The notes: generated by a model not told the origin, from the sequence alone. DNA of 64,000 nt from Thermoplasmatales archaeon SW_10_69_26 (GCA_003009755.1 PXUB01000022.1:16963-80962); one strand, 5' to 3'; shown: positions 16,864-63,924, counted from the first letter of the stretch. Numbers and translations: made by a program.

Positions 16864-16872
16864 GGGAAGTCC

Positions 16873-17361: not shown

Positions 17362-17465
17362 CTCTTTTCACCACTTCGCAGGCGGGAATGACACAACTCT
17401 ATTTACCTGCTTGAGCATTTAAATTCGACGACATGGGGTGGAAGTACTGACGGCGCCATTTTAGA

Positions 17466-19112
17466 TTAGACCTCGACGACGGCCTCGCCCCGCGCCGCCT
17501 CGGCGAAGCCTTTGCCCTCGAAGAGGACGACGTCCTTCTGCACGTCGTGGAACGCGCGCGGCTTCTCGGTGTGGATCGGCACGATCCGGTCGGCCGCCAT
17601 CGAGCGGTAGAACTCGGCCAGGTCGGGGCCGGCCGCGTGCCCGCTCACGTGGGTGAGGCCCGTCAACGCGCCCGGCGGACCGCCCGGCGTCTCGGGCAGA
17701 TTGTGGTCGAGCCCGAAGCGATCCAGCCAGTTGCGCTGGCGGTCGATGTTGAGCGCCATCTCCTCGTTGAACGGCTCCGTGAGACACCGGATCCAGCGCG
17801 ACCCCGGCGGCGGATCGACATCGATCAGGTCCTGGATCGACCAGTACGACAAGTGCAAGAGGTAGTCCTGCGGGTTCTCGCGGATGTCCGTGGCGCGCAC
17901 TCCCCCCTGCAGGTGAGCCAACGGATCCCTCAGCGTCACCTGGTCGTTGGCCTTCCAGGCGGGCTTGATCGTGTCCCGATCCCACTTCGTCTTGTAGCCG
18001 GCCTCGTGCTTGCGGCGGGTGTAGTCGCTGGGGTTGTAGCGCATCGTGCCCCGGCGCAGCAGGTAGGGCTCGACGTGATCGTAGCGCTCGGGTGAGCGCG
18101 AGGGCACGTCCTGGCGGTGGTCGAGCTGCTTGAGCAGGTAGGCCAACCGCGGGTCGACGACGAGCGTGCGGTCGGTCTTGGCGGCGACCTGCTGCATCGT
18201 GTCGAAGCGCGTGGTGTCCTTCCAGCCGAACTCGACGACGCCGAGCCCGGGGCAGTTCTCCAGCAGTTCGGCCACGTCGCGCTCGACGCCGGCCTCGTCC
18301 TCGGCGGCCGCGTCCGTGATCCGCGTGCCCTCGGCGAGCAACAGGTCCGGCTCCAGGCCCTCGGCGTACTCGCGCAGGCGCTGGGTTCGGGTCGTCAAGC
18401 GTCCGTGGAACCGGAGATCGCCGGTGTAGAAGATGTCGGCGCCGCTCGGCGTGCGGACGTGGAAGGCGACGGCGCCCGGCACGCTGTGGTCGACCGGGAC
18501 GGCCGTCACGTCGAAGGGCCCGATCGTGAACGCGGTGCCGACCGGGCACGTCTCGATCGTGCGCTCGCGCCGCTGGGTCTTGACGTCGTCGTCGCCGGGG
18601 AAGTAGGCGCCCGAGCCCAGCTGTTCGATCGAGCGCTCGCGCACCTCGACGATCTCCTCGCCGATGCCGCCCGAGCCCAGGTGGTCGATCGATTCGAGCA
18701 TGCGTTGCGTCGTCGCTGTGCAGTGCACCGGGATGTCCGGGTCCAGGAACGCCATGTCGCCGAAGTGGTCCAGGTGGGCGTGCGTGAGCAACGCGCCGTG
18801 CACGAAGGGCTCGCCGGTGCGCTCCTCGTAGGCCTTGGCGCTCTCCGGCGGCTCGCTGTCGAGCTCCTCCCACGCCAGATCGACCAGATCCTGCCGGTAG
18901 AGCCCGTCGACGTCCGGCAACAGGTCGAGATCGATCAGGTCGGTGAGGATCGTCGTCGTACGCGGCTGCAGGTAGGAGTCGAAGTACGTCTTGCGCGCGC
19001 CGAAGCTCATCCCGAAGTCCAACAGGACCCGGTCGTCGCCGTCCTCGACGAGGAACTTGTTCCCGCCAATCTCGTTGAGGCCGCCGAGCAGGTGGACGCG
19101 GACGGAGGACAC
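17466..19112 (-). CDS. MBL-fold beta-CASP nuclease, RNase J-like
   Basis: 'GGLNEIGGN', 'THAHLDH', 'DHSVPG', 'YTGDLRFHG', 'HVSGHA', 'PIHTE'. Confidence 0.85.
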
Positions 19113-29607: not shown

Positions 29608-30560
29608 GTGGACGGCCAGGCCTCCCGCTCCGTCGCCATCGTCGGCGCCAACCGTCCCCTTCGCTCGACAGAACACCGCCTACCACGACCTGTCGAACCA
29701 GGAGATGCCGACCGACACCCTGCAAGGCCTCGTCGACCGCTGCGGGCTCGAGGGCGAGCGCCTGGGGGAGGTCGCCGGCGGCACCGTGATGAAGCACGCC
29801 CGCGATTTCAACCTCGTCCGCGAGTCCGTGCTCGGGACGACCCTGGACCCGCACACCCCGGCCTACGACGTCCAGCAGGCTTGCGGGACAGGGCTCGAGA
29901 CGGCGGTCCTCGTGGCCAACAAGATCGAGCTCGGACAGATCGAGGTAGCCGTCGCCTGCGGCACGGACACGACCAGCGACATGCTGGTCAGCGTCAGCGA
30001 GGACAGCAGCGGGCCCTGATGGACCTCGCCGACGCGAAGGGTCCACGACAGCAGCTGAAGGCGCTCGCGGGCGTGTTGAACCCGGCCCACCGCCTCCCGG
30101 AGATCCCCGAGAACGCCGAGCCACGCACCGGCATGTCGATGGGCGAGCACGCCCAGCGCACCGCCGACGGCTACGGCATCACGCAAGAGGAGATGGGCGA
30201 GCTCGCCGTCGCCAGCCACCACAACCTGGCCGAGGGCTACGACGAGGGCTTCTTCGACGATCTGGTGATGCCCTACGAGGGCCCGGCACGCTCACGGCCG
30301 CCAACTCCTCGCCGCTCACCGACGGCGCCAGCTCGGTGCTGCTCGCCAGCCAGGCCTGGGCCGAGGAGCACGACCGGCCGGTGTGGGCCTGCCTCGTCGA
30401 CGCCGAGACCGGCGCCAGCGACTACGTCGACGGCGAGGGGGGCCTGCTGATGGCGCCCGCGCTCGACGCCGTGCCCCGGCTGCTCGAGCGCAACGACCTC
30501 ACGCTGGAGAGCTTCACCCTCGTCGAGGTCCACGAGGCCTTCGCCAGCGTCGTCCTCTGT
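29608..30560 (+). pseudogene. Acetyl-CoA acyltransferase (thiolase) pseudogene
   Basis: 'QQACGTGLE', 'MSMGEHA', 'ANSSPLTDGAS', 'EVHEAFAS' in different frames, with deletions and a truncated C-terminus. Confidence 0.85.
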
Positions 30561-30665
30561 CCCCGCGATCCTCGAAGCCAAGGGCCAGGCCCGCCGCTCC
30601 GCCGCGCCCGCCGCGGCCCGCTCGCGACCCCCACATTCTTCTCCCCGACCCTCCTCGCCTCGCTG

Positions 30666-31202
30666 ATGAGCTCGGCCCGCATCGAGCTGCGCTCGGCCCG
30701 CCCCGAGGAGACCGAGGCGATCGCCTCGCTCGTCAACGACGCCTACGGCCGCACGCCGACCGAGAGCGGCTGGACCAGCGAGGACGACATCCTCGAGGGC
30801 CCGCGCGTCCAGGCGGCGGACCTCGAGGCGATGATCGACGAGGACGACGCTCGGCTGCTCGTCGCCGAGAGCGACGACGGCGAGGAGCTCGTCGGCTGCG
30901 TCCACCTGCAGCGGATCGACGGGGGCGCCGTCGAGCTGGGGCTGTTCTGCGTGCGCCCCCACCGCCAGAACGGCGGCCTCGGCCAGCAGATGCTCGCCGC
31001 CGCCGAGGAGGCGGCCATCCGCGAGTTCGGCGCCGAGCGCATCGTGCTGAAGGTCATCACCGAGCGGACCGAGCTGCTCGACTGGTACGACCGCCGCGGC
31101 TACGAGCGCACCGGCGAGACGAAGACGTTCGAGCCCGAGGCGCCCCAGCGGTCGCTGGTCGGCGAGCTGGCGTTCGAGGTGTTGGAGAAGCGCGTGGCCT
31201 GA
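30666..31202 (+). CDS. GNAT N-acetyltransferase
   Basis: 'VRPHRQNGGLG' acetyl-CoA motif; 'WYDRRGY'. Confidence 0.9.
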   Translation: MSSARIELRSARPEETEAIASLVNDAYGRTPTESGWTSEDDILEGPRVQAADLEAMIDEDDARLLVAESDDGEELVGCVHLQRIDGGAVELGLFCVRPHRQNGGLGQQMLAAAEEAAIREFGAERIVLKVITERTELLDWYDRRGYERTGETKTFEPEAPQRSLVGELAFEVLEKRVA

Positions 31203-31790: not shown

Positions 31791-33185
31791 TTAGTCGCTC
31801 GCCGGTCGGATGTTCTGGTTGACCGAGAAGCGGTTGTCGGGGTCCCAGTTGGCCTTGACCTGGCGCAGGCGCTCGTAGGTCTGCTTGCCGTAGGCGGCCT
31901 CGATGCGGTCCTGGTCGTCGCGGGCGAGGTAGTTGACGTAGACGCCCTCGCGCACGTGCTCGGCGACGTCCTCGAACAGCTCGCGCACCCAGGCGATGTT
32001 GGCCTCGTCCTCGGCCGGGTCCTCCCAGCGGCCGTTGATCTTGAAGATGTGCTCGGCCCAGCGGCCGCTGAAGGCGCTGGCGTGCTCGTCGACCTCGGCC
32101 ATGGCTCCGCCGGCGTGCTCGAGCTTGACGTCCATGATCGTCGAGGGCATCTCGTGGACGCGCTCGACCATCGCCTCGAGCACCTCGTCCGGCAGCTCGT
32201 CGAGGTAGCAGGACTTCCAGTAGTCCCGGTAGCCGGCTTGCCAGGCGTCGTCGCTGCTGGACTGCCACTCCGTGAACGGGCGCTCTCGCACGTCCTCGTG
32301 GATCGGGTCGCCGAAGCTGGTGAGCGGCTCCAGCACCTTGCGGCCGCGGTCGGGGTCGCCGGCGTAGCAGGCGGCCAGGGCCACGACCGGCTCGCCGCGG
32401 TGCTCGGCGGGGATCTCGCTCGTTTCGGGCGCGGTCTTGACGATGGCGGCCGTGACGACCTCGGTGGGGGCCCGGGCCGTCCACTCCTCGTAGAAGTCGA
32501 GGACCTCGCCGGCGTCCCGAGCCGGGTGCAGGTTGGCGCCGGCGTAGACGGTGGGCCCGAGCTCGACCGTGTCGTACGTGAACCGGGTCACGATCCCGAA
32601 GTTGCCGCCACCCCCTTGCAGCGCCCAGAACAGGTCCGCGTTCTCGTCCTCGCTGGCGCGCACCAGCTCGCCCTCAGCCGTGACGACGTGGGCCTCGGCG
32701 AGGTGATCGCAGGTGAGCCCGTGCTCGCGCATCAGCCAGCCGACGCCGCCGCCGAGCGTGAGCCCGGCCATGCCGGTCATCGAGACGACGCCGCTGGGGA
32801 CGGCGAGGCTGAAGGCCTGGGTCTCGTGGTCGACGTCGCCCAGCGTGGCGCCGGGCCCGACGTGGACGCGCTCGGTCTCGGGGTCCAGGCGCACCTCGTC
32901 CAGCGCCCCCAGGTCGATCACGATGCCGTCGTCGGTGGTGCCGTCGCCGGCGACGCTGTGCCCGCCGCCGCGCACGGCGACCGGTCGTTGGTGCTCGCGG
33001 GCGAACTCGACCGCCGCGATCACGTCGGCGGTGCCGGTGGCCTCGACCACGAGGTCGGGGCGTTGGTCGATCATGCCGTTCCAGACGCTGCGCGCCTGGT
33101 CGTAGTCGGGGTCCGTCGGTCGGACCAGGCGGCCGCGCAGATCGTCGGCGAGCTCGTCCACGGCGGGGGCTGGGGGGTCGGCCAT
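31791..33185 (-). CDS. FAD-binding oxidoreductase (BBE family)
   Basis: 'RGGGHS', 'LTLGGG', 'GGGGNFGIV', C-terminal 'YVNY...WDPDNRF'. Confidence 0.92.
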   Translation of the reverse strand: MADPPAPAVDELADDLRGRLVRPTDPDYDQARSVWNGMIDQRPDLVVEATGTADVIAAVEFAREHQRPVAVRGGGHSVAGDGTTDDGIVIDLGALDEVRLDPETERVHVGPGATLGDVDHETQAFSLAVPSGVVSMTGMAGLTLGGGVGWLMREHGLTCDHLAEAHVVTAEGELVRASEDENADLFWALQGGGGNFGIVTRFTYDTVELGPTVYAGANLHPARDAGEVLDFYEEWTARAPTEVVTAAIVKTAPETSEIPAEHRGEPVVALAACYAGDPDRGRKVLEPLTSFGDPIHEDVRERPFTEWQSSSDDAWQAGYRDYWKSCYLDELPDEVLEAMVERVHEMPSTIMDVKLEHAGGAMAEVDEHASAFSGRWAEHIFKINGRWEDPAEDEANIAWVRELFEDVAEHVREGVYVNYLARDDQDRIEAAYGKQTYERLRQVKANWDPDNRFSVNQNIRPASD

Positions 33186-33234
33186 CAGCCGAGCCAAGCG
33201 GGATGGGGTCCTTGGCGTTAGGGTTCAACGGATG

Positions 33235-33370
33235 GAAAGCGACCGCGGGCCGGGGGAGCTACCCCCGGCCGCGGGCTTGCCTCCCCGCAGGGCACCGCGG
33301 TGGACGCGATCTCGCGCCCGACGGCACCTGCGAGCGTCAACAGCGTCCCATAGCGACCTTGTCAGGCCGC
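33235..33370 (-). ncRNA. Candidate ncRNA copy A
   Basis: TATA (TTTTTAAG, 33393-33400); 5' hairpin GCGGCCU-GACA-AGGUCGC; terminal GC hairpin plus pyrimidine run. Confidence 0.55.
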
Positions 33371-33730
33371 ATCCCCACCGTCCGCGAGTGTCCTTAAAAA
33401 CCTCATCGTGAGGGTGGCTTCGCGACCTGTGTCACGCGTGGGTGGTGAAGGCCGCTCTCGCTCGGCGTGACGGCCAAGCGAGCGCTTGCAACGCCTCCGC
33501 GTCCGGTGGACGAGGGTGGGGCGATCGAGGGTGTCGGACGGGAGAAGATGAAGGGCCACCGGCCGGGGCCTCGAGCCCGGCCGGCGGCGCGTGCCTTGCC
33601 TCCTCGCCGTCAGCCGCGATGGACACCCGATGGCGTCCGACGGCACCGGCGAGACGAACAGCGTCCCATAGCGACCTTCTCAGGCCGCATCCCCACCGTC
33701 CGCGAGTGTCCTTAAAAATCTCATCGTGAG
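33339..33730. repeat. 74-bp near-identical direct repeat (33339-33412 and 33657-33730)
   Basis: Two mismatches, 318-bp period; looser similarity extends on both sides. Confidence 0.92.
33550..33688 (-). ncRNA. Candidate ncRNA copy B (paralog of A)
   Basis: TATA 33711-33718; 5' hairpin GCGGCCU-GAGA-AGGUCGC; same architecture as copy A. Confidence 0.55.
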
Positions 33731-34277
33731 AGCGGCTTCACGTCGCTGTCACGGGGCGTCGTGACACGGCGCCGGGGAATCGCTCGCACCTCCACGCTGC
33801 GGGGCGAGGCCCTAACCGGCAGAGACCGCCTTAAGCGGTTCCCCTGCCGCGTTGGGGTCCGAGAGGTCGTCGGAGTGCCAGCATGTGCAGGACCTCTCCC
33901 CTCCCCGGTACGCGCTCGTCGCCGTTCCACTGTTCTCAACCCGAGGCAGCGCTCGGACTGGCACTCCGGCGGCGGCCGAGCGTTTACCCCTCCCGCGGAC
34001 GCGGATCCTGGCCGGGCCCTGGAAAGGCTCTTGGATGGGATGCCTCCGCGGGAGGATCCCCTTCACTCGATCCAGATCCCCACATCGAAAAGCAGCCCAC
34101 CGTGCCGGCGAGCCCCTGCGTGGGCGGGGGCGATGACCCGGCCTCATGTTCATCCCCTGCTGCTCCCGCGATCACTCCGCGGGACCTCCATCCATCTCCG
34201 CCCGCCGGCTTGCCTCGCAGGTACCCACCTGTCCCTCTTGAGCGAGGGTGCATCCTGCCGGCGGGCGCATCCACTCT

Positions 34278-34460
34278 ATGGGTGTACACACCTTCGTCAT
34301 CGAGACCGATAGCACGATCGCGGACACCGACGCCCTCGAAGACCTCGTCAAGCTCCTCGAGGACCACGACGACGTCGGCGCGATCAAGGACGCCGGCGAC
34401 TTCCACGACACCGTCGCCGGTCACCTGCTCGGACGCGACGGACCGCCCGAGCTCTCCTGA
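34278..34460 (+). CDS. Small acidic hypothetical protein
   Basis: Halophile-like codon usage; followed by a GC hairpin. Confidence 0.55.
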   Translation: MGVHTFVIETDSTIADTDALEDLVKLLEDHDDVGAIKDAGDFHDTVAGHLLGRDGPPELS

Positions 34461-34790
34461 CGGTCCCGGTCCTAGCCCCGGCCCGACCGGGCCGGGAGCC
34501 TTCCCCTCCTGCTCACACAAGCGGGATCGCGTAGCCGTGCCCGCGGATTGGACGCCGCGGCAGGCCACGCGCAACCGGTCCCGCATCGGCCGCTTCCACC
34601 CTCGATCGTCTTACTCAGTCTACGGGAACCTCGACGGTGGTCTCTCTCAGATCGCAATCCACGGGAGCGGCCCCTCCCCCCTCTCACACGTCACGACCCG
34701 GGTGCCCCCTGACCTTCTCCAACAGCCTCCCAAGCCTCCACACTCAGGGGCGCCCGGGTCCGACCCTCACCCCTCAGAGGGAGGCTCGCC

Positions 34791-35195
34791 ATGACGAAAC
34801 CCGGCCCCGACCCCGGGCACGGCGGACGCCCACGCCTACCCTGCGAGATTTGCCACCGCCCGAGAGACAGCGACCGCCCGGCGCGAGCCCTCCGGATGAA
34901 CCGTCACGGTCACGAGATCCGCGCCTGCGAGCGCTGCCTCGAGGCCGCTGAGACCACGCGAGACCGCCGCCGGGCCGACCCCAGCGGTCTCGGCCCTGAC
35001 TCCTCACGAGAGGAGATCATCGCCGACCTGCGAGCCAGAACCCCCATCACGATCGCCAGCGGCGACGCCGAGACGATTACCGTTCACGAGGCCGATCACG
35101 ACGCCGTCACCGAGACCGACGACGGCGTCCTCGTCGATCCCAGTCCTTCCCATCACGACAGGAACGGACAGGAGGTGAACGGCGGAGCGCCGTAA
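34791..35195 (+). CDS. Viral hypothetical protein with CxxC pair
   Basis: GGAGG RBS; 'CEIC' and 'CERC'. Confidence 0.6.
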   Translation: MTKPGPDPGHGGRPRLPCEICHRPRDSDRPARALRMNRHGHEIRACERCLEAAETTRDRRRADPSGLGPDSSREEIIADLRARTPITIASGDAETITVHEADHDAVTETDDGVLVDPSPSHHDRNGQEVNGGAP

Positions 35196-36360: not shown

Positions 36361-36629
36361 GCCTGGTTCCGCCGCAGGATCAGCGCTCGCTCGCCGAGCT
36401 CCGGGAGACCTGCGGGAATAGGCTGGACAAGCAGAAGATCGCCGTGCTCGTCCTCGACGAGCATGACGATCCCGTGCCGGCCCGCGTCATCGCCGACCAG
36501 GTCCACAGGTACGGTGGCATCAGCTCCTGCGAGGCCGCGACCGCGCTCCGCACGCACCCCAGCGTCGAGCACGAGACCTGCCCAGACCGGGGCGTCCACG
36601 TCTACTGGACCACGGAGGGGGAGACGTGA
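36357..36629 (+). CDS. Viral hypothetical protein (possible wHTH)
   Basis: GTGA coupling on both sides. Confidence 0.55.
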   Translation: MSLVPPQDQRSLAELRETCGNRLDKQKIAVLVLDEHDDPVPARVIADQVHRYGGISSCEAATALRTHPSVEHETCPDRGVHVYWTTEGET

Positions 36630-37198
36630 CTCTCCTCGGCATCGACCCCAGCCTGCGGAACACCGGCGTCGTCAGCCTCGACCCGTCGATGGGCACGATC
36701 ACCCGCGTCGAGGTTATCCGCACAAGCAAGCAGGCCGACCGGAAGAACCTGCGCGTCGGCGAGGACGATCTCCGCCGAGCCCGACGCATCGCTCGCGAGC
36801 TCGAGCAGCTCGTCGACCAGGAGCAGCCCGTCGCCGTGTTCGGCGAGCTTCCCGGCGGCTCCCGATCGAACCGCGCGTCCAAGGGCTTCGGCATCGTGCT
36901 CGGCGCGATCGGCGCCGTCACCGAGCTGCGCGACCTCCCCACCGGATGGGAGACCCAGTTCGCGCTGAAGAAAGCCTGCACCGGCGACGGGCAGGCGACC
37001 AAGACCGCGGTCGCCGACCACGTCCAGGACCACTACGCCTGGGAGGACGAGCTCCCGGACGCGAAGACCCGCCGGCAGCACGTGTTCGACGCGGCCGCGG
37101 CCCTGTACGCGAACCGCGAGTGCGACCTCTACCGCATGGCCGTCCAGCAGTCCACCCCTCACGCTTCAGCCGCTCAGCAGGAAGGTGAACACACGTGA
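36626..37198 (+). CDS. RuvC-like Holliday junction resolvase
   Basis: 'LLGIDPSLRNTG', 'VFGE', 'LKKACTGDGQATK', 'HVFDAAA'. Confidence 0.85.
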   Translation: MTLLGIDPSLRNTGVVSLDPSMGTITRVEVIRTSKQADRKNLRVGEDDLRRARRIARELEQLVDQEQPVAVFGELPGGSRSNRASKGFGIVLGAIGAVTELRDLPTGWETQFALKKACTGDGQATKTAVADHVQDHYAWEDELPDAKTRRQHVFDAAAALYANRECDLYRMAVQQSTPHASAAQQEGEHT

Positions 37199-39105
37199 CC
37201 GAACAGACCGACCAGCGCGGCCTCGGCGCCTACGCGCCCGAGCTCGCGCCCGACCTACCCGACGCGACCACCGTCCGGATCAGCCTCAACGAGCTGCATC
37301 CGGGCGACGAGAACCCGAGAGAACAACTCGACGACATCGAACCCCTCGCCCAAAGCATCGCGAGCGAGGGCCTCCAGAACCCCATCGCCGTCCGCCCGAA
37401 CGGCGACGGGTTCGAGATCGTTCACGGCCACCGCCGCTACGCTGCCCTCGACCAGTTAGGCGTTGAGGACGCGCCTTGTCTCGTGCGCGAGGACCTGGAC
37501 GATGAGGGCACCGCGCTGGCGCGCACGATCGAGAACCACCAGCGCGCCGACCTCACCCCCTACGAGGAAGCCCACAGCTTCCAGGTCGCGCTCGACACCG
37601 GCCTCACCCAGGCCGAGCTCGCCGAGCGCGCCGGCGTCAGCCCGGACACGATCCGCCGACGCCTCAAGCTGCTCGACGTCCCCGAGGACGTCGCCGAGAA
37701 GGTCGGCACAACGACCGGGTACTCGATGGAAATCGCCGACCTCGTCCGCGACCTGATCCTGGCGAAGGACGACGTCGACGACGGGTTCCAGGACCACGTC
37801 GACACGATGATCGAGCACACGATCGAGAAACTGCCCGCCGTCAACCACAACGGCCACACCCAACGCGTCGACAGCTGGGCGCGCAACGTCTCCCACAAAT
37901 GGGCCCAAGCCGGCCTGGTGGTCGGTCACTCCTTCAAACGCGACGTCGGGCTCAGCCACCAAGAGAAAGCGTGGTTCAACGAGACCGACCACCCGCGTGT
38001 CCAGGAGCTCCACGAGGAGCTCGACGAGCTCGAGTCCATCTCTTGGATGGACCACCAGGGCGAGGAGTACCAGGAGGTCATCGACCTCGACGGTTACGCC
38101 CGCATCATGGGGGAGGCCGCTGGCCTCTACGAGGACGCCCACGAGGACGATGACGACGACGGGAAGACTCTAAGACAGCGCCGCAACCGACTGAAGCGAA
38201 AGCAGCGAAGCGCCGTCAAGAGCGCCACGAAGCAACGCGTCCGCGACACCGTGAGCGAGAAACTCGCCGGGCGTGTAACCACGTTCGACCAAGCCCGAGA
38301 CAGCCTCGCCCGCATCCGCCTTCGCTCCGCGTCCTGGTGGAACCCGGACAAGCGCGACATCGCCACGATCGCCGAGACCGTCGACGTCGATGTCGCCCGC
38401 CTCGAAGACGTGTTCGGGGGTCGAGCTGGGAACGAGGAGGCGATGGACGAGCTCGTCGACGGCCTGCTCGAGAGCGATGATACGGGCGCCGCCTTGGCCC
38501 GGTTCTGGCTGAGCGTCGAGATTCTCCGCCAGGAGCCCGCGGACCCGACTACGCCCGAGGTCAACACCTGGTCCGAGATCGCGAAGGAGTGGCTCGGTGG
38601 AACGCCTGCCCAGCTGGCACAGTGGAGCCGTCAAAGCCTCGAGGCCAACGGCGAGCTACCGCCGTCGTCGCCGACGGTCCGCCTCGCCCGCGAGTCCACG
38701 CCGAACGAGGACGGCGAGATGGAGCACCTCGCGCAAGCCGTCTCGAAGGGGTCCCGTGCCTTGTGCGGGCACCGGTTCGAGGACGTCGAGACGGCGGACG
38801 AGACCCAGGCCGGCCAGTGCGAGGCGTGCTGGGACATGGCCGACGAGTACGACCTGACCATCCTCACCGGCGAACGCGCCACCAAGGAAGACCTCGAGGC
38901 TGTGCTCGACACGCTCGGGGAGTACGTGGACCCGGGCATCCCTCTCGATCGGACCCTGCCCGACCTCGCGCCGAGCGATCTGCGGGACCTGGCCGACGAC
39001 CTGGGCGTCCCCGACGACGTCGACGACGAGGACATCATCGTCGCCGTGAAGGAACAAATCCCCGCGGAGGCCGACATCGGGGAGGAAGGTGGCGACGATG
39101 GCTGA
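37195..39105 (+). CDS. ParB/Spo0J-family protein with long C-terminal extension
   Basis: 'GLQNPIAVR', 'IVHGHRRYAA', 'IENHQRADL', HTH 'TQAELAERAGVS'. Confidence 0.88.
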   Translation: MTEQTDQRGLGAYAPELAPDLPDATTVRISLNELHPGDENPREQLDDIEPLAQSIASEGLQNPIAVRPNGDGFEIVHGHRRYAALDQLGVEDAPCLVREDLDDEGTALARTIENHQRADLTPYEEAHSFQVALDTGLTQAELAERAGVSPDTIRRRLKLLDVPEDVAEKVGTTTGYSMEIADLVRDLILAKDDVDDGFQDHVDTMIEHTIEKLPAVNHNGHTQRVDSWARNVSHKWAQAGLVVGHSFKRDVGLSHQEKAWFNETDHPRVQELHEELDELESISWMDHQGEEYQEVIDLDGYARIMGEAAGLYEDAHEDDDDDGKTLRQRRNRLKRKQRSAVKSATKQRVRDTVSEKLAGRVTTFDQARDSLARIRLRSASWWNPDKRDIATIAETVDVDVARLEDVFGGRAGNEEAMDELVDGLLESDDTGAALARFWLSVEILRQEPADPTTPEVNTWSEIAKEWLGGTPAQLAQWSRQSLEANGELPPSSPTVRLARESTPNEDGEMEHLAQAVSKGSRALCGHRFEDVETADETQAGQCEACWDMADEYDLTILTGERATKEDLEAVLDTLGEYVDPGIPLDRTLPDLAPSDLRDLADDLGVPDDVDDEDIIVAVKEQIPAEADIGEEGGDDG

Positions 39106-39871
39106 GACGGTCAAAACGGTCAAGACGGTGCACTCTGAGCGCGAGCCGGTGGCCTCGTGCAAGATTTCGAGCGCGAACCTCCAGTACCTCCTCGACTGGG
39201 TGTCAACCATCAACGGGGAGGTGAAGCTTGAGCTCGACGGTGGCACGCTGTCGTATCGGGAGATCGGCGCGGCGCACGTCTGCATGGTCACCGGCAGTGC
39301 GCCCGTGCTTGAGCAGGAGGGCGAGGCCGAGATCGGGGTCGACGTCGACCTCGTCACGGACCTGCTCAAGCCGGTGCCGATCGCGGCGCCCGACCCGTTC
39401 CGGCTCGAGGTGTACGAGGCGGGCCCGCTCGTTCTCGAACACGCTCGCTATGAGTACGAGCTCCAGGTCCTCGACACGAGCGGCATGACGGATCCGAAGG
39501 ACCCGGACCTCGAGCTCCCCTGCCGGTTCACGATCACGGCGCGGGACTGGAGCAACTTCCTCCGCCGCGCGGACAAGGCCAGCTCCTACATCAAGCTCGC
39601 CGGGCACCCGGACGGCGTCACAGGGACTGCCGAGGGCGACCAGGTGTCCCTCACGCACAAGCTCGACTGTGACGAGCACGAGTTCGACAGCGGGCACGAG
39701 GACCAGGTCGCCAGCCTGTTCAGCCTGGACTACCTGGACAGTTTCCGAAAGGCGCAAAGCTTCCAGGGAGACGTCCGCTTCCGGCTGGGGAACGACTACC
39801 CGATCGACTGGGAAGCTCGCCCCGGCGAGTGCGTGCTGACGGGTCAACTGGCGCCGCGCATCGAGGACTAA
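39098..39871 (+). CDS. Viral PCNA sliding clamp (divergent)
   Basis: 'AHVCMV', 'SLFSLDYL', 'LGNDYPI', C-terminal 'LAPRIE'. Confidence 0.85.
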   Translation: MAETVKTVKTVHSEREPVASCKISSANLQYLLDWVSTINGEVKLELDGGTLSYREIGAAHVCMVTGSAPVLEQEGEAEIGVDVDLVTDLLKPVPIAAPDPFRLEVYEAGPLVLEHARYEYELQVLDTSGMTDPKDPDLELPCRFTITARDWSNFLRRADKASSYIKLAGHPDGVTGTAEGDQVSLTHKLDCDEHEFDSGHEDQVASLFSLDYLDSFRKAQSFQGDVRFRLGNDYPIDWEARPGECVLTGQLAPRIED

Positions 39872-42389: not shown

Positions 42390-42845
42390 ATGAGCCAGGA
42401 CGCAGACCTCCCGCCCGACGACCGCCGCTGCACGGCCACGAACAACCGCGGCGAACGCTGCCGCAAGTACGCCATCAAGGGCGGGAACGTCTGCGAGGTC
42501 CACGGTGGTAGCGCCCCCCAGGTCAAGAAGAAGGCCGGGGAGCGGATGAGAGAGGCCGCCGCCCCCGCAATCCACGACCTCGACACCACACGGCAGGAAA
42601 TCCGCGACATCCTGGCAGACCTCCTCGACGGTCTCGACGCCGCCGACCTACTCGAGAGCGAGGACGTCGACGACGAGGACCTCCTCCACCTGGCGATGAG
42701 CCTCAGCGGCCACCACGAAGACCTCACCGCTGACATCCTCGACCGCGCCGGATACCCGAAGGCCGAACGCCGCGAGATCGCCAGCGACGAAGCCAACCCG
42801 CTCACCCTCCTGATCGACAGCCTCCGCGACGATGAACCAGCTTAA
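42390..42845 (+). CDS. terS: Terminase small subunit (HGGxS-type Zn domain)
   Basis: 'RCTATNNRGERCRKYAIKGGNVCEVHGGS'; directly upstream of TerL. Confidence 0.7.
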   Translation: MSQDADLPPDDRRCTATNNRGERCRKYAIKGGNVCEVHGGSAPQVKKKAGERMREAAAPAIHDLDTTRQEIRDILADLLDGLDAADLLESEDVDDEDLLHLAMSLSGHHEDLTADILDRAGYPKAERREIASDEANPLTLLIDSLRDDEPA

Positions 42846-44286
42846 GACCGCAGCCGAGCACCTCCAACGCCTCCGACACGAGCGCGACGTTCGCGCCCTG
42901 TGCCAGCACCTCCTCGGCTTCGACCCCAGCCCCCGCCAACAGGAGATCATCGAGGCCATCGCCTACGAGGACCACGACCGCCTCGCCATCACGGCCCCGA
43001 CCCGATACGGGAAGACGCTCGCCGTCGCCGCCGGCCTGTGCCTGCTCATCCTCCTCAACGACGAGCCGATCGGGATCGGCGTCATCAGCGCCACCAAGGG
43101 CCAGGCGAAGAAGATGCGCGACTACGTAGCCGAGTTCGTCGTCGCCTGCCCGTTGCTCGAGGAGCTGCTCGAGCTCGATGTCGGCCAGAAGGACGTCGAG
43201 CGCCTCACCAAGGAGGTCAGCCGCGAGAAGCTAACCTTCCAGGACGGCAAGACCTTCGAGATCCACTCGGCGCACGGTAAGGCCAACCGCGTCATGGGCG
43301 AGGGCGAAGAGGTGCTCGTCATCGAAGAGTGCGCCCTCATCGACGACGACACCTACCGCGAGAAGGTGCGCCGCATGGCCGAGGGCGCCCTCTACGAAAT
43401 CAGCAACCCCTGGAGCAAACACTCGGAGTTTTTCAACAGCTGGCAGAGCGACCGCTACCACAACATCCAGGTCCTCCTCGAGGACGCCCTCAAGGAATAC
43501 GAGACGAACGAGGACTGGGGCGTTGACCCGGACCTCGTCGAGGAGCAACGCGAGCGCCTCGACGAGATCACGTTCACCGTCCAATACGAATCCCGATTCC
43601 CCGACGACGTTGAGGATACCCTCGTCAAGTGGAGCTGGATCGTCGACGCCGTCGAGGCCAGCCCGCCGGACCCCGACGATCACCCTGTGGACCAGGTCCA
43701 GTACGGCATGGACGTCGCCAACGAGGGCACGGACTCGACCGTCCTCATCCGCGTCGAGTGGCGCAACAGCGTCGCGACCGTGACGCACGTCTGGTCGTGG
43801 CAGCGCGCCGACACGCAGGAGAACGCTGACCGCGCGGAGAAACGGATCCGCGAAACCGACGGCCTCGAGGACTGGGACCTCGGCGTCGACGCCGTCGGCG
43901 AAGGCAAGGGAACCTACGACGAGATGGCCGACCGGTTCCCCGACCAAGTCCACGACTTCAAAGGCTCCCGGAAGCCGTCGAAGAAGGAGCGCCGGGAACG
44001 CGAGAGCCTCGACGCGGACGAGTACCGGTTCAAGAGCATCAAGCACGAGGCGCACTGGCACACGCGCGACCTGTTCGAGGACGGCGCCATCCGGATCCCC
44101 GACCACGCCGACCTGAGGCAGGACTGCTCGCGGTCACGCTACGAGATTAAGCGCGGCAAGGTCCACGTCCACTTCGAGGACGAGGACAACGACAGCCCCG
44201 ACCACTTCGACGCCCTCACAATCAGCCTGTTCCCCACCGACCGCTTCGCGAGCGGGATCCAGGTCGAGCCCGCCTGGACCGCCTGA
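42832..44286 (+). CDS. terL: Terminase large subunit
   Basis: Walker A 'APTRYGKT', Walker B 'LVIEE', 'ISNP', nuclease 'GMDVA..G.D', 'SPDHFDAL'. Confidence 0.93.
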   Translation: MNQLKTAAEHLQRLRHERDVRALCQHLLGFDPSPRQQEIIEAIAYEDHDRLAITAPTRYGKTLAVAAGLCLLILLNDEPIGIGVISATKGQAKKMRDYVAEFVVACPLLEELLELDVGQKDVERLTKEVSREKLTFQDGKTFEIHSAHGKANRVMGEGEEVLVIEECALIDDDTYREKVRRMAEGALYEISNPWSKHSEFFNSWQSDRYHNIQVLLEDALKEYETNEDWGVDPDLVEEQRERLDEITFTVQYESRFPDDVEDTLVKWSWIVDAVEASPPDPDDHPVDQVQYGMDVANEGTDSTVLIRVEWRNSVATVTHVWSWQRADTQENADRAEKRIRETDGLEDWDLGVDAVGEGKGTYDEMADRFPDQVHDFKGSRKPSKKERRERESLDADEYRFKSIKHEAHWHTRDLFEDGAIRIPDHADLRQDCSRSRYEIKRGKVHVHFEDEDNDSPDHFDALTISLFPTDRFASGIQVEPAWTA

Positions 44287-44663: not shown

Positions 44664-44851
44664 CGACCTCAGCATCGACATCGACGAACTCGCGCCCCAA
44701 CCCCCGCTGCCCGATGCACGGCGACGACGAAGAGCCCATCATGGGGATTCGCGTGGATGCCGACCTGACCGAGGACGAGCTCAACCAGCTCCGCGAAGAG
44801 CACCGCCAGATGAACGACGACGTCGACGTCACGCTCCAGGAGGATCGCTGA
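44660..44851 (+). CDS. Small viral protein ('CPMH' motif)
   Basis: Coupled on both sides. Confidence 0.5.
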   Translation: MTTSASTSTNSRPNPRCPMHGDDEEPIMGIRVDADLTEDELNQLREEHRQMNDDVDVTLQEDR

Positions 44852-47460
44852 TGCCCACGACCACGCTGAAGAAGCAGGCCCAAATGGCCGCGGCGAACGC
44901 AGACCCCGAAGCCCCGAAGGCTCTCCGCAACACGCACCTCTGGGACACACAAGGATACGGCAGCCCGCGCTACCAGGACCTCGTCACCGCGCGAACGCTC
45001 GAGCAAACCCACACCTTGCAGATCCCGATCGGGACGATCAAGGAGCAGATCGCGACCACGCCCATCACGGTCCGCCCCACCGTGGACGACCCGACGGACG
45101 CGCACTGGGACGCCGCCGAGCAGGTGCTGGAGTGGCTGCAGGGCAACTTCAATCCGAACCGCGAGAGCTTCAGCCACTTCCTGAAGCAGATCACGAACGA
45201 CATCCTGAGCATCGACGCTGGCGTCATCGAGCTCATCCCCGACAGCGAGGGCCTCCTCTGGGGGATGAAGGCCCGCGACGGCGCCGCGTTCACAAAGGAC
45301 CCTGACGAGCACGGGTTCCTCCCGGAGCCCGGCAGCGACGACACCGCCTACTGGCAGTTCGGCGCCGGCATGGGCCACCTCGCTATCGACCGGGACAAGA
45401 CCTTCCGCGAGGCTCTGCTTGAGCAGCAGCAGGTGTTCAGCCAGGCCGGGATGCAGAAACCGGTCGCGTTCACGCGCGACGAGATCTGCTGGATCGAGAC
45501 GAACCCGCGCTCCTGGCACGACTACGGTCTCGGGCGCGTCCAAATCGTGCAGCGCGTCGTCGAGATCATCGCGAACCAGGACGTCGAGAACAAGCGCTTC
45601 TTCACGAGCGGTGAACTCGCCGACCTCATCATGTCGCTACCCGGCTTCAGCGACAACGACCTGGAGAACTTTAAGGAGTTCTGGACGGACGAAGTCGTCG
45701 GGCAAGAGCACGTCGCGCCCATGGTGAACCACGAGGTCGACGTGAACCGCCTGCGCCCACCCCTGCAGGACCTGCAGTTCCTCGAGAGCCAGGAGTGGTA
45801 TCACAAGCTCGTGTGGTTCGCGTTCGGCGTCCCCGTCGGCGAGGTCGGCGAAAGCGCCGAGGTCAACCGCGCCACCGCCGAGTCCCACCGAGGCACGATG
45901 TGGGAGAAGACGACGCGCCCACTCATGCACTCGATCGAGCAGGAGATCAACGACACCGTCCTCATCTTCCACCCGGCCTGGCACGAGGTCGACGGCGAGC
46001 TTGAGTTCGCGTTCGACCCCGACTTCACGCCCAAGGACGCCGAGCGCCGGCGCCGCCAGACCGAGGACCTAGCGAACGGCTTGGCCACGATCAACGAGGT
46101 CCGCCAAGAACGCGGCGAGGAAGAGGTCCCCTGGGGCGACCTCCCCGACCCCTTGCTTCAGGCCGTCGCACGGAACCATCCCGAATGGGCGCTCGAGCAC
46201 TGGGCCGACGTCGACGACCCGCCCGAGAGCGATCCCGGCATGGGGTTGCTCGGCGCCAACCCCAATGGCGGCGGCCCCCACGACCCCGACAACGATGATG
46301 GCGCCGCCGCCACCCAATCCCGGCCCCGGTCGCAAGCGCCGACCATGCAGGCGCTTGCGACGGAGCGCGACGCGCTGCGCGACACGGACGAGGGCGAGGG
46401 CGACGAGATCCCCCGCCAGGCACGGCGAGTCATCAGCCTCGCCAGCCAGCTGGGCACGATCATCGAGCGCGAGCTCACACTCGTCCTTGAGGACTTGCAG
46501 GACGAGTGGCCCAACCAGGACGAGGCCCAGCCTGACCGGAAGGCGTTCGCCCCCGACCTCGAGACGCTGGTCGGAACCATTCGGTTCGCGCCCGCTATGA
46601 AGGCCGCGGCCGTCGCCGCTGGCGAGGACGCACTCCAGGAGAGCGTCGACACGCACGCGGAGAACCTCGAGGAGGAGATCAACGACCTCGTCGAGGACGA
46701 GCCTGAGCTTGAGCTCGACCTGGACGTGGAGGACACGGCCGCACTCAAGCGCCTCGAGGAGAACGCCGGCTGGCGCATGGAGGAAGTCGAGGACACCGTC
46801 AAGGAGCGCATCAATCGGACCTTGTCGCGCGTCGCCGAGGGGGATGGCACCGTGGGCGACATGACCGAGGCGTTGCGCGAGGAGATCGACGCGATCACAA
46901 GCGAGCACGCCCGCACGGTGGCCCGGACCGAGGTCATGGACGCCAGCCGCGAAGGCTCACAGGCCTTGGCAGAGAGCACGAGCGTCGTCAATCGGAAGGA
47001 GTGGATGGCGACCAGCGACGCCCGCACGCGTCCCTGGCACGACGCCATGGACGAGGAGACCGTGCCCGTCGACGGGTCGTTCACCGTGCCGGACGGTTGG
47101 GAGGGCAAGCCCCACTACCAGCCCTCGGACTACCCGCGCGAGGCGTTCAAGGTCGGCGACGACCAGCCCTACCGGTGCCGGTGCGAGCAGCTGCCCGTCG
47201 TCGCCGAGGACCGGTTCCCCGACATGGAGAGCCTGGCCCGGTGCCCGGATGTCAAGCGGGCCCACGCTCCTGATTACGCGACGGTGGAGACGGAGAAGCA
47301 GCGCGTGGTCCTGTTCTGCCACGCGGAACCGGGCGAGGGGTTGACCGAGCTGCTCGATCGCGTGAAGAACGAGGAGCGGCTGAGCAGCCGCAAAGCGCTG
47401 GACCGTCTCGGGATCGGGAGCCTCGACACCTTGTACGGCTGGGGATGGAAGGACCTCTGA
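44851..47460 (+). CDS. Portal protein fused to MuF (SPP1 gp7-like) domain and C-terminal HTH
   Basis: Portal 'DLQFLE..FGVP', 'TINEVRQERG'; MuF 'ARTVARTE', 'KEWMATSDARTRPWH', 'YRCRC'; terminal HTH-like 'SSRKALDRLGIGSLDTLYGW'. Confidence 0.88.
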   Translation: MPTTTLKKQAQMAAANADPEAPKALRNTHLWDTQGYGSPRYQDLVTARTLEQTHTLQIPIGTIKEQIATTPITVRPTVDDPTDAHWDAAEQVLEWLQGNFNPNRESFSHFLKQITNDILSIDAGVIELIPDSEGLLWGMKARDGAAFTKDPDEHGFLPEPGSDDTAYWQFGAGMGHLAIDRDKTFREALLEQQQVFSQAGMQKPVAFTRDEICWIETNPRSWHDYGLGRVQIVQRVVEIIANQDVENKRFFTSGELADLIMSLPGFSDNDLENFKEFWTDEVVGQEHVAPMVNHEVDVNRLRPPLQDLQFLESQEWYHKLVWFAFGVPVGEVGESAEVNRATAESHRGTMWEKTTRPLMHSIEQEINDTVLIFHPAWHEVDGELEFAFDPDFTPKDAERRRRQTEDLANGLATINEVRQERGEEEVPWGDLPDPLLQAVARNHPEWALEHWADVDDPPESDPGMGLLGANPNGGGPHDPDNDDGAAATQSRPRSQAPTMQALATERDALRDTDEGEGDEIPRQARRVISLASQLGTIIERELTLVLEDLQDEWPNQDEAQPDRKAFAPDLETLVGTIRFAPAMKAAAVAAGEDALQESVDTHAENLEEEINDLVEDEPELELDLDVEDTAALKRLEENAGWRMEEVEDTVKERINRTLSRVAEGDGTVGDMTEALREEIDAITSEHARTVARTEVMDASREGSQALAESTSVVNRKEWMATSDARTRPWHDAMDEETVPVDGSFTVPDGWEGKPHYQPSDYPREAFKVGDDQPYRCRCEQLPVVAEDRFPDMESLARCPDVKRAHAPDYATVETEKQRVVLFCHAEPGEGLTELLDRVKNEERLSSRKALDRLGIGSLDTLYGWGWKDL

Positions 47461-47483: not shown

Positions 47484-47512
47484 TACACGCCCGCGCCCCT
47501 CATTCGGGCTTG

Positions 47513-48646
47513 ATGCCGGCGCGGCCCGCGCAGAAACGCGTCAAGCGCGTCCGACCCAACTCGAAGGACGTCACGCTCGACGAGGGAGACGACGGCCAGC
47601 GCCGCCTCACCGTCCCCATCAGCAGCACGGAGGAAGACCGGGACGGCGACCTCGTCACGCTCACCGCGCTCGAGAGCATGCGGGACCAGATTGAGGCCGA
47701 CCGCGTCCCCCTGTTCCTCGACCACGGCCTCGACGACACCGGGGCCATGAGATACCGCGTCGAGGACATGATCGGCGCCTGGGAAGAGGCGCGCATCGAG
47801 ACCGACCCTGGCACCGGCGAGTCCACGCTCATCGCGACCGCCGTCCTCGAGGAAGACAACCCCGACGCGGACATGCTCTGGACCAAGCTCGAGAACGGGC
47901 TCCCCGTCGGGTTCTCGATCGGGTACTTCGTGCTCGAGAGCGAGCAGCGCGACCCGGAGGAGACGCGCGTCGAGCAGCCGTTCGACCCGCTCGTCATCGA
48001 CGACGTTGACCTCGTCGAGACGAGCCCCGTCGGCATCCCCTCGAACCCCGCAAGCGTTGCCGGCGTCGACGTCGAAGACGCCCTCCGCACGGCTGCAGCC
48101 GGAACCAGTCACTCTCCCAGAGAGCTCAAACAAGCGCTGGCGGGCGCGCTCACGACCGTGCTCACCCAGGACAACGTGGAGGACAACATGACCACCGACC
48201 CTGACGACGCCGACGAGCCCAGCGACGAGACCGAGACCGGCGACGGCCCCGACGCCGACGAGGGAGAAGGGGAACCGGCCACGGGCGACGTCGACCTGGA
48301 CGAGCTCGCCGACGCGATCGCCGAGCGGGTAGCGCCCGATCTCGTCGACGCCGTCGAGAGCGCCTTCCCCACCGACGAGGACGACGAGGACGAGGACGAC
48401 GATGAGGAGACCGAGTCCTCGGACCCGGAGGGCGAGGAGCCCGAAGAGGGCGAAGGCGAGGGTGAGCGCGATGCTCCCCGCGGTGATCCACGAGAGAAGG
48501 AGAGCCCCGGCCCTCGGGGCATGAAGACGCACCCCGACCGTGACCCCGAACAGGACGAGGGGAGCGGGGAAGGGTCTCAGACTGACAGTTCTGGGGGCAG
48601 CCCGGTGGGCGGTCCCCGCATCCCTGCCATCGACGGAGGTAGCTAG
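47513..48646 (+). CDS. HK97-family prohead protease with acidic scaffold-like tail
   Basis: 'EDRDGD', 'LFLDH', 'GFSIGY', 'LVETSPVGIPSNP'. Confidence 0.9.
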   Translation: MPARPAQKRVKRVRPNSKDVTLDEGDDGQRRLTVPISSTEEDRDGDLVTLTALESMRDQIEADRVPLFLDHGLDDTGAMRYRVEDMIGAWEEARIETDPGTGESTLIATAVLEEDNPDADMLWTKLENGLPVGFSIGYFVLESEQRDPEETRVEQPFDPLVIDDVDLVETSPVGIPSNPASVAGVDVEDALRTAAAGTSHSPRELKQALAGALTTVLTQDNVEDNMTTDPDDADEPSDETETGDGPDADEGEGEPATGDVDLDELADAIAERVAPDLVDAVESAFPTDEDDEDEDDDEETESSDPEGEEPEEGEGEGERDAPRGDPREKESPGPRGMKTHPDRDPEQDEGSGEGSQTDSSGGSPVGGPRIPAIDGGS

Positions 48647-48648
48647 TC

Positions 48649-49929
48649 ATGCAAGCGAAGAAGGCCCTCGGCCTCGACTCGAAGTCCGACGCGTTCCAAA
48701 GCCTCTGGCGCAACTGGGGCTTCGACACGCGAGAGCAGAAGGGCACCGGAGAAACCGTCACGCAGAGCCTGCAGTCCTGGCACCGGCAGATGGCCGAGGC
48801 TGGGCGCTTCCAGGCCAGGGTCGCCGAAGAGATCGAAGGCCCCGACGGCGAGACGCGCCGCGGACTCAAGGGCATGGCCCGTCACGTCCTCGCCCTGCAA
48901 CAGGAGGCGATGGAGAACGACGGCCAGCTGCCGGAGACCGACCAGGCCGGGGCCTGGAACCAGTCGATGCTGGACGCGCACACTCCGCTGGTGTTCGACC
49001 CGGAGATCTACCAGCTCATCACCGATGAGACGCCCATCCTCACCGAGGTCCCCACGATCGGGCAGATGGGCTTCACCGCGAAGACCAACCGGATCGACCA
49101 GCGCGATGAGCCGATCGGCTGGGTGAACGAGAGCACAGCGCTGCGCCTCGTCGACGAGACGCACAGCGACGACTCGCTCGACGACATCCAGCAGGACATG
49201 CTGATCCACGCGGACCTCGTCGAGATCAGCGACTTCGCTGCCCGCGCCACGGAGCACTACGAGGGCCTCACGCCCCTGCGCGAGACCGCGCTCGGCACGC
49301 GCCTGGTCGAGGATCGCCGCCACATGGAGCGCTCGGTGCTCTACGCCGACCCCAACGCGTCGGCGGACACGGACCACTCGGACGTGCGCGGCAGCATCTT
49401 CAGCCCGGACGCCACGCCGAGCCTCTCCACGTTCGCCGAGACTGCTGGCAACGATATCGACAAGAGCACGGTGTCGGCGGACATCGGCGAGGACATCAAG
49501 AGCGAGATCGCCGCGCTCGAGCAGTCGCAGGAGAACGTCGATCGCAGCGACATGGTGATCTCGGTCAGTGAGACCATGTTCGACGTGCTCGAGAACGAGC
49601 ACGAAGGCCAGCGCCGGTACACGAGCGAGGACAACGAGGCCGTCGTTGGCTTCGACGGGATCCGCATCGGTGGCGTGCCCGTCGTGCCCGCCGATCAAGT
49701 CCGCACGCACAGCTACGGGGCGGGCACCAACGAGATCACGCGCGGCGACCCCGGCGACGTGTTCGTCCTCAACAAGCGCGCCGTGCAGTTCCGGTCGCTC
49801 GCCCCGCTCATGACGGTCCCGCTGGGCCGCCGCGGGCTCGGCGAGGAGGTCGCCCTCGGCGAGTATGGGGCGCTCGTCGACCGGAGTAACGGTCGCCACA
49901 CGCTCTGGCTGAAGGCCTACGACATCTGA
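48649..49929 (+). CDS. Major capsid protein (HK97 fold)
   Basis: Position after protease, size, 'P.V.DPEI', C-terminal 'LAPL..VPLGR.G..EE...GEYGALV'. Confidence 0.85.
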   Translation: MQAKKALGLDSKSDAFQSLWRNWGFDTREQKGTGETVTQSLQSWHRQMAEAGRFQARVAEEIEGPDGETRRGLKGMARHVLALQQEAMENDGQLPETDQAGAWNQSMLDAHTPLVFDPEIYQLITDETPILTEVPTIGQMGFTAKTNRIDQRDEPIGWVNESTALRLVDETHSDDSLDDIQQDMLIHADLVEISDFAARATEHYEGLTPLRETALGTRLVEDRRHMERSVLYADPNASADTDHSDVRGSIFSPDATPSLSTFAETAGNDIDKSTVSADIGEDIKSEIAALEQSQENVDRSDMVISVSETMFDVLENEHEGQRRYTSEDNEAVVGFDGIRIGGVPVVPADQVRTHSYGAGTNEITRGDPGDVFVLNKRAVQFRSLAPLMTVPLGRRGLGEEVALGEYGALVDRSNGRHTLWLKAYDI

Positions 49930-55211: not shown

Positions 55212-55269
55212 AAGAGGTGGGACCCTCAAGAGCGTCGAGCTCACCTGAGAGGCGCAGGAGCGTGAGAGC

Positions 55270-55845: not shown

Positions 55846-55856
55846 CGCGCCGTAAC
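55839..55856 (+). promoter_or_regulatory. 18-bp viral motif, copy 2
   Basis: Identical to 47466-47483; precedes the tail genes. Confidence 0.6.
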
Positions 55857-55946
55857 CAAGCCCCATCCCCACGCTGGGAGAGATAAGCCGCCGGCGGGCG
55901 TCCAAACGAGGACACCTGCCTCCAACGGCCGAACGAGGCCACCTGC

Positions 55947-63923: not shown

Positions 63924-63924
63924 T

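Follow-up and report, generated by a model that had tools for sequence, protein, structure and literature searches.

Adjacent paralogous small RNAs are known from bacteria, and OmrA/OmrB of Escherichia coli and PrrF1/PrrF2 of Pseudomonas are examples of this arrangement. Genes for stable RNAs, namely tRNA and tmRNA genes, are reportedly used as integration sites by proviruses and genomic islands. For archaea, attachment sites outside tRNA genes are also on record in the accessible portion of a 2021 review, which describes archaeal serine recombinases as known from transposons and never fully studied (PMC8371274). Archaeal tailed proviruses have been located by means of their integrase, direct repeats and tRNA genes, as given in the available part of a second source (PMC11705971). 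In halite metatranscriptomes, 613 intergenic sRNAs with archaeal promoter elements were described; the available text names Halobacteria, Nanohaloarchaea and Cyanobacteria, and the word Thermoplasma is absent from the main text (PMC7002113). Almost nothing is known about the regulatory RNAs of Thermoplasmatota-type halophiles, which are metagenome-only organisms.

Here, a tandem of repeated units is analysed in a 64,000-nt stretch of DNA (the window) from Thermoplasmatales archaeon SW_10_69_26 (genome G000). The window corresponds to contig C22:16963-80962 and runs to the contig end; the genome comprises 2.8 Mb in 49 contigs with a G+C content of about 70%. Genes for TFIIB and a PCNA-like protein identify the window as archaeal, and its sequence is present in halite metagenome runs. 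The G+C content drops to 0.59 at 16001-18000, outside the provirus described below, and to 0.60-0.62 at 52001-56000, versus about 0.70 elsewhere. We consider it likely that the tandem represents two paralogous, lineage-specific small non-coding RNA genes on the minus strand, whose products would act as regulators in trans, and that a provirus occupies the promoter of the distal copy.

Architecture of the tandem units

A repeat search identified one family with two copies, 33339-33424 and 33657-33742, which are 86 nt long, share 94% identity and lie 318 nt apart. A preliminary description of this DNA had given the same period and a shorter length of 74 bp; when the sequence was re-read, every minus-strand element that it had listed was found in its place. 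On the minus strand, each unit opens with an upstream block and a TATA box; the 5' hairpin (P1) comes next and is followed by a single-stranded linker, the nested stem P2/P3 and a GC hairpin (P4) that carries a pyrimidine tail (Table 1). The P1 hairpin, GCGGCCU/loop/AGGUCGC, starts 22 nt after TTTTTAAG in both copies and differs between them only in its loop, which reads GACA or GAGA. The element GGAGGCAAG is confined to the two copies of this genome when these are compared with the homologous units. A frame opened at the AUG of the linker extends over 4 codons in one unit and 19 in the other, and in sister genomes it is broken by a 1-nt indel or by loss of the AUG. No reading frame is thus common to the units or to the sister genomes, as had been proposed from the two copies, and a small-peptide gene was rejected on this ground.

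The tandem is not peculiar to this assembly, since a 333-nt contig of another halite study (run X3) bridges unit 1, the spacer and unit 2, spanning 33354-33686 with 16 differences and 4 gaps. Within the spacer, a GC hairpin module matches G000:C43:43668-43701 (E 0.002), and this relative lies directly 3' of an acyl-CoA-dehydrogenase-like gene.

Table 1. Features of the tandem units, their neighbours and the adjoining provirus. Positions are those of the window unless a contig is named.
Feature	Position	Strand	Basis or remark
GNAT gene	30336-31202
FAD-linked (BBE-type) oxidase gene	31791-33185	-	Pfam FAD_binding_4 8.9e-33, BBE 1.7e-12; ATG 33185-33183
Unit 1 predicted RNA, ~140 nt	33232-33372	-	fold energy and covariation; 5' end inferred from TATA spacing, 3' end uncertain
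Unit 1 P4 GC hairpin, then pyrimidine tail	~33243-33275	-
Unit 1 GGAGGCAAG	33276-33284	-
Unit 1 P2/P3 nested stem	33291-33328	-
Unit 1 linker	33337-33352	-
Unit 1 P1 hairpin	33353-33370	-
Unit 1 TATA box TTTTTAAG	33393-33400	-	sequence; TATA-to-hairpin spacing
Unit 1 upstream block (GTGACA, CGAAGCC, palindrome CCTCA-CGA-TGAGG adjoining the TATA box)	33401-33435	-	sequence; kept in 15 aligned promoters of 6 genomes
Spacer between units, with GC hairpin module at ~33455-33500	33425-33539	-	similar to the C43 module
Unit 2 predicted RNA, ~150 nt	33541-33690	-	fold energy, bridging contig
Unit 2 P4, then pyrimidine tail	~33555-33588	-
Unit 2 GGAGGCAAG	33595-33603	-
Unit 2 P2/P3	33613-33647 (outer stem 33603-33653)	-
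Unit 2 linker	33655-33670	-
Unit 2 P1 hairpin	33671-33688	-
Unit 2 TATA box TTTTTAAG, T-run as likely crossover point	33711-33718	-	C7 half-site matches up to TTTT, diverges beyond
Unit 2 upstream block (palindrome TCTCA-CGA-TGAGA)	33719-33753	-	probably virus-derived arm of a hybrid attR
Tailed provirus, to contig end	33754-64000	+	Pfam, PHROG; left border inferred from att alignment
RuvC-like gene	36626-37198	+
ParB gene	37195-39105	+
PCNA-like gene	39089-39871	+
Terminase gene	42832-44286	+
Portal gene	44851-47460	+
Protease gene	47510-48646	+
Capsid gene	48649-49929	+
Tail tube gene	56583-57548	+
Tail-fibre-like gene, Peptidase_S74 domain	62466-63923	+
Serine recombinase, 294 aa	G000:C7:55767-56651 (L012:5768-6652)		Pfam Resolvase + Recombinase; PHROG integrase 4.4e-59

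The promoter region is conserved in a fixed order. In all units the upstream block contains GTKACA, followed by CGAAGCC and TCACG, and the sequence behind the TATA box is conserved up to TGCR, which marks the start of the first hairpin. The pattern GAAG.C..TC is invariant in the 15 promoters that were aligned from 6 genomes. The distance from the TATA box to P1 measures 28-30 nt in 10/10 units, and this fixed spacing bears out the proposal that each unit carries its own TATA box. Boxes of this kind, e.g. CTTAAGG, TTTTATCC and TTTATAC, are also present at comparable distances in front of this genome's tRNA genes. Transcription is predicted to start about 28-30 nt after the beginning of the TATA box, i.e. 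at 33372-33370 for unit 1 and at 33690-33688 for unit 2. In this genome, a regular-expression search finds the upstream block at the two units only, and BLAST and model searches add a half-site on contig C7. The block is probably a transcription-factor site. The palindrome beside the T-run shows a compensating pair change between the copies (CCTCA..TGAGG versus TCTCA..TGAGA) and, since it is found only in this genome, may be part of a recombination site.

Strand-specific folding and covariation

The minus strand of both units is predicted to fold with high stability: unit 1 reaches -86.8 kcal/mol (z -4.10) and unit 2 reaches -89.9 kcal/mol (z -4.31), and for either unit 0/200 shuffled sequences were as good, in a genome where stable folds are cheap because of its 70% G+C. 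Folds of the plus strand are weaker (z -1.76 for unit 1 and -2.51 for unit 2), and the minus strand is the more stable one by 16 kcal/mol.

A comparison between genomes provides evidence for structure beyond energy values. For this purpose, 10 units from 5 related genomes were aligned to a covariance model (R1), which had been built from six units and covers the promoter and the RNA up to P2. Standard pairs occupy 86.9% of the cells, versus 38-55% when the partners are slid by 1-3 columns, in an alignment that was fitted to the R1 model and therefore leans towards structure, and whose units are kin, with those on contigs C33 and C40 of genome G001 being near-identical. Changes on both sides were counted in 12/21 modelled pairs across the 10 units, and 0/500 shuffles reach any of five pairing measures. 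G-U cells number 25 and A-C cells 4 among the 10 units, a ratio that is compatible with pairing on the minus strand alone. In P2/P3, insertions cause a poor alignment of three diverged units (G004_b, G005_C8 and G003_C50). A covariance model with a search for homologues had been suggested in the preliminary description, and the outcome, i.e. two-sided changes together with a strand-specific G-U bias, speaks for the structured RNA that was proposed there.

The fold that emerges from this comparison starts with P1, continues with the unpaired linker and with P2 enclosing P3, and ends in most units with P4 and a pyrimidine tail. The linker is conserved, unpaired and purine-rich, resembles AUGGGAGCYUGU, and this single-stranded segment is the best-conserved part of the RNA. 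Between P2 and P3 lies a conserved asymmetric 1 x 3 internal loop with C on one side and AYC on the other. The GC hairpin with its pyrimidine run, also pointed out before, was recovered in both units at the positions of P4 (Table 1). Two structural details of the initial reading had to be revised. A conserved GNRA loop had been expected from the two copies, and the P1 loops of the homologues turned out to be C-rich or A-rich. Furthermore, the proposed GGACGC...GYGUCC stem gave way to the nested P2/P3 arrangement, in which a closer 5' strand is the partner of the 3' strand; the former stem is an alternative pairing that is available in this genome only. The T-runs after P4 consist of T3 or are absent, which leaves the 3' ends uncertain, and the next T5 on the strand beyond unit 2 is the TATA box of unit 1.

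Distribution and genomic context of the family

Diverged copies of the units were found by BLAST within the same archaeal family, with the parts in the same order and often as tandem pairs. The R1 model matches 6/6 genomes of this family, which constitutes the whole order in the collection used. Full units with an RNA body are present in five of these six genomes (two in G000, two in G001, one in G003, two in G004 and three in G005), and in G002, which is 72% complete, the match is limited to the promoter, upstream of a different RNA. The model has matches in 0/15 other genomes of the class and, with stricter filters, in 0/145 other genomes of the phylum. A promoter pattern with 15 fixed bases gave at least 120 matches among genome contigs; those listed are bacterial, yielded no additional homologue and are taken as chance, given that just 15 bases are fixed. 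When promoter and P1 were combined in one pattern and searched against metagenome contigs, at least 120 matches were obtained, and among the matches listed 0/120 had the linker motif and 1/120 a TATA-like word alone. Judged by these sequence searches, the RNA family is restricted to a single archaeal family and previously undescribed; a full-text literature search, which is a weak negative, found no description of this RNA.

The units of the sister genomes are flanked by housekeeping genes, including those for AICAR transformylase, enoyl-CoA hydratase, fumarase, phosphoglucose isomerase and superoxide dismutase, and tandem pairs occur at two non-viral loci (G005:C18 and G004:C48). The unit at G005:C8 is the positional counterpart of the tandem: the adjoining GNAT protein is 47% identical to the GNAT protein of the window, and TFIIB is encoded next to it, which is also the case in the window. 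In G001, the units on C33 (L153) and C40 (L154) are near-identical as a whole over about 190 nt, from the upstream block to the pyrimidine tail, and have different flanks, which indicates that the complete gene was recently copied by duplication or gene conversion. The recurrence of whole units in sister genomes, with constant spacing and, in this comparison only, covariation, upholds the view of a paralogous structured small-RNA gene family.

GC-hairpin repeat cassettes, i.e. REP-like DNA modules that came to lie behind a promoter by chance, might also give rise to such a pattern, and the transcript would then be a functionless by-product. The spacer indeed holds a GC hairpin module with its relative on C43, P4 resembles a generic GC hairpin and the units are mostly situated between convergent genes. 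However, the entire architecture has the same order of parts in four genera and a fixed TATA spacing, one to three copies per genome are present rather than dozens, and hairpin modules account neither for a single-stranded linker as the best-conserved part nor for the strand-specific G-U bias. We therefore hold this explanation to be quite unlikely.

Under the favoured explanation of two small-RNA genes, P1 and the linker would serve as a base-pairing seed or as a protein-binding site of a trans-acting regulator, and the two copies might act redundantly or additively. Of the traits that define trans-encoded sRNAs, which also include a discrete transcript and a demonstrated target, the units have a promoter, a conserved unpaired linker and non-coding sequence. 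The preliminary description had considered a guide-like RNA with a variable interior. This idea lost ground, as the interior varies in the way that paired stems do and no target matches were found: when the complement of the unit was sought in the same genome with blastn-short, no candidate target emerged, and only the C7 half-site stood out besides the units themselves. For the linker, neither a target nor a partner came to light.

The provirus and its putative attachment site

Provirus genes follow on the plus strand at higher coordinates than the tandem (Table 1), and the left border at 33754, obtained from the att alignment, places the units at the provirus edge, where they had been located before. 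A tblastn search of 50,697 GenBank phage records with its terminase yields no match at E 1e-5. The att core pattern has 0 matches in viral collections, and these accordingly provided no free attP sequence. The integrase encoded on C7 has no relative in IMG/VR, and 14 pattern matches in viral collections include none that was confirmed. In terms of sequence, the provirus is far from described viruses.

The only other match to the repeat in the genome, C7:55504-55555, comprises the upstream block alone. Of this half-site, C7:55527-55555 agrees with the block of unit 1 at 28/29 positions and stops at TTTT (C7:55552-55555), where a unit would go on as the TATA box. It has the right orientation for an attachment site and adjoins the gene of a serine integrase. 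This recombinase covers positions 87-362 of the 651-position PHROG integrase profile. The C-terminal half that is typical of large serine integrases is missing from it, and the protein may be either truncated or an archaeal short form. Behind it, an ERF-type annealing protein and a PD-(D/E)XK exonuclease are encoded on the other strand. Upstream of the T-run, unit 2 differs from unit 1 at 4/24 positions, versus 1/62 downstream, and among the 15 aligned promoters a T for a C in CGAAGCC is seen in unit 2 alone.

These observations make it probable that the provirus inserted itself into the promoter of unit 2, the distal copy, and that the upstream block of unit 2 is probably the virus-derived arm of a hybrid attR. 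In the proposed course of events, the provirus would attach at this promoter by recombining within the TATA-box T-run. Unit 2 would thereby come to combine viral and host parts: its upstream block would be a virus-derived look-alike, and TATA box and RNA would be those of the host. The displaced host block would now be found on C7 beside the serine integrase. The last 99 bases of contigs C22 and C7 are shared and equally oriented (window 63902-64000 and G000:C7:60329-60427), just after the tail-fibre-like gene. They may form an inverted repeat around a segment that is missing from the assembly and could be invertible, in which case C7 would be the far end of the provirus; two related elements would fit the shared bases equally well. 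The proposed join between C7 and the provirus is indirect, being based on these terminal bases. In runs X3 and X4, positions 33776-34945 are simply uncovered by contigs, a gap that does not demonstrate a provirus-free strain, and none joins across the site. The flank of C7 contains a gene for a 479-aa protein without a counterpart beside the G005:C8 unit; within the family it has a single match, a G001 protein with 28% identity whose gene lies about 4 kb away from a weak promoter match. The HTH regulators compared near the C7 flank are only 25% identical, and another pair of neighbours is unrelated.

Serine integrases do not require long homology between attP and attB. A look-alike of about 40 nt thus goes beyond what the integrase needs, which counts against the proposed attachment site. 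If the upstream block doubles as an attachment site, the RNA gene would be an integration target in the manner of tRNA genes. An att site had been named in the preliminary description as an outcome that would speak against RNA genes; a putative site of this kind coincides with the upstream block only, and the RNA gene would not be dissolved by it. The possibility of unit 2 as a viral cargo gene is disfavoured by the tandem pairs at non-viral loci and by the X3 contig that bridges both units.

The repeat could be viewed as a mere recombination scar in which successive integrations duplicated an att target that encodes no RNA. Such a scar would be in keeping with the position at the provirus edge, the recurrence of the upstream block as a half-site beside an integrase and the near-identical copies on two contigs of G001. 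Yet the half-site has only the upstream ~40 nt, without TATA box, P1, linker or stems, and in G001, G003, G004 and G005 the ORFs called up to about 7 kb from the units include no integrase (30/41 ORFs scanned). Tandem pairs at non-viral loci and covarying pairs likewise argue against a scar, which is considered very unlikely.

Comparison with known classes of RNAs and elements

With Rfam 15, no covariance model reached its gathering score, be it in the window or in any of 13 sister loci. At E values up to 10 nothing credible was found; the best matches were THF, which lies on the opposite strand with 20.7 bits versus a gathering score of 36, and scr5239 with 19.3 bits versus 64. ARAGORN predicted 0 tRNA or tmRNA genes in the window and 0 in 13 loci with units or unit-type promoters. 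Both searches agree with the earlier statement that no known RNA family can be assigned, and a tRNA-like reading was discarded as ARAGORN finds no gene. Membership among C/D box sRNAs was judged by a C box (RUGAUGA) near the 5' end and a D box (CUGA) near the 3' end; the C box is present in 0/10 units and CUGA in 3/10 without a common place, which led to rejection of this class. An H/ACA sRNA is recognized by a hairpin whose pseudouridylation pocket is large and two-sided, together with an ACA box on the 3' side of the lower stem. The internal loop measures just 1 x 3 nt and ACA is either absent or lacks a common place in the 10 units, so this class was rejected too. The end of a MITE or IS element was dismissed, as 0/20 inverted pairs in 32000-35000 bracket a unit and each genome contains 1-3 units.

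It is highly improbable that the units are cis-acting leaders, i.e. a tandem riboswitch or attenuator, of the FAD-linked oxidase gene: tandem aptamers are known in bacteria, P4 is terminator-like and unit 1 ends about 45 nt before this co-directional gene, but a co-directional downstream gene, as a riboswitch or cis leader would need, is present at 1/7 loci only, the next called downstream ORF being on the opposite strand at the other 6/7, the downstream genes are unrelated (BNR protein, PIN, peptidase S15 and GNAT), no Rfam riboswitch was found apart from the weak THF match on the wrong strand, and a TATA-like CCCTAACG precedes the oxidase ATG. The oxidase gene, which is the downstream neighbour of unit 1 on the same strand, lies outside the RNA unit. 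Its co-directional position a short distance away makes read-through from unit 1 possible. The TATA-like CCCTAACG is placed about 30-37 nt ahead of the ATG (window 33214-33228), and the oxidase gene may have its own promoter and a leaderless mRNA instead of depending on read-through from unit 1.

A second RNA type and a possible regulon

The promoter was also searched with a sequence-only model (R2, E up to 0.05), which detects 3-6 sites per genome, the strong ones preceding either the unit RNA or a second RNA type. The latter is composed of one to three copies of GGTTCGGCAACAC, a CUC-rich sequence, a stem and a pyrimidine tail, and the 13-mer GGTTCGGCAACAC is present in 6/6 genomes of the family. 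In G000, the second RNA type is located at G000:C30:62330-62560 on the minus strand, behind a diverged upstream block; in sister genomes it is found at loci L025, L028, L029, L018 and L023. Weaker promoter matches precede protein genes at G003:C274:233-295, G002:C86:2297-2336 and G005:C55:8324-8370 (L292, L288 and L301), and two of these three genes encode apparently secreted proteins. The upstream block is consequently not exclusive to RNA genes.

Such a distribution hints at a small regulon whose members share a DNA-binding factor. A further-reaching idea, which we regard as unlikely though not negligible, is that the block defines a lineage-specific regulon headed by two sRNA families and that the attP of the provirus mimics it, so that integration would exchange the host control region of one sRNA gene against a viral version. 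If this were true, the free viral genome would have the site of a host factor beside its integrase gene, and lysogeny or induction would be tied to a host sRNA circuit.

Relation to described systems

The locus offers a concrete candidate RNA family with predicted starts, a covarying fold, an unpaired segment and a common promoter element, and this element is also situated ahead of another RNA family and of a few protein genes. It further provides a case of an archaeal tailed provirus that apparently uses a serine integrase and the promoter of a small-RNA gene as its target.

The two units resemble OmrA/OmrB and PrrF1/PrrF2 in being neighbouring paralogues that each have a promoter and a 3' hairpin of their own, with 5' parts that are nearly identical and middle parts that diverge. 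The described pairs are bacterial, Hfq-dependent and transcribed from regulated sigma-70 promoters, whereas the promoters here are of the archaeal TATA type and the RNAs are predicted. There is no likeness to OmrA/OmrB or PrrF at the level of sequence or model, as no Rfam family reaches the gathering score in the window. With the intergenic sRNAs of halite and haloarchaea, as far as these are characterized in the available text, the predicted RNAs share a size within 50-200 nt, upstream elements of the BRE/TATA type and the same kind of habitat (PMC7002113).

With regard to integration, the site is comparable to tRNA and tmRNA attachment sites in three respects: a small RNA gene would act as attB, a look-alike sequence of the element would keep the gene whole, and a partial copy would mark the other end. 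In contrast to those sites, the target is not a tRNA gene, the proposed crossover falls into the T-run of the promoter instead of the 3' half of the RNA, and the recombinase is of the serine instead of the tyrosine type.
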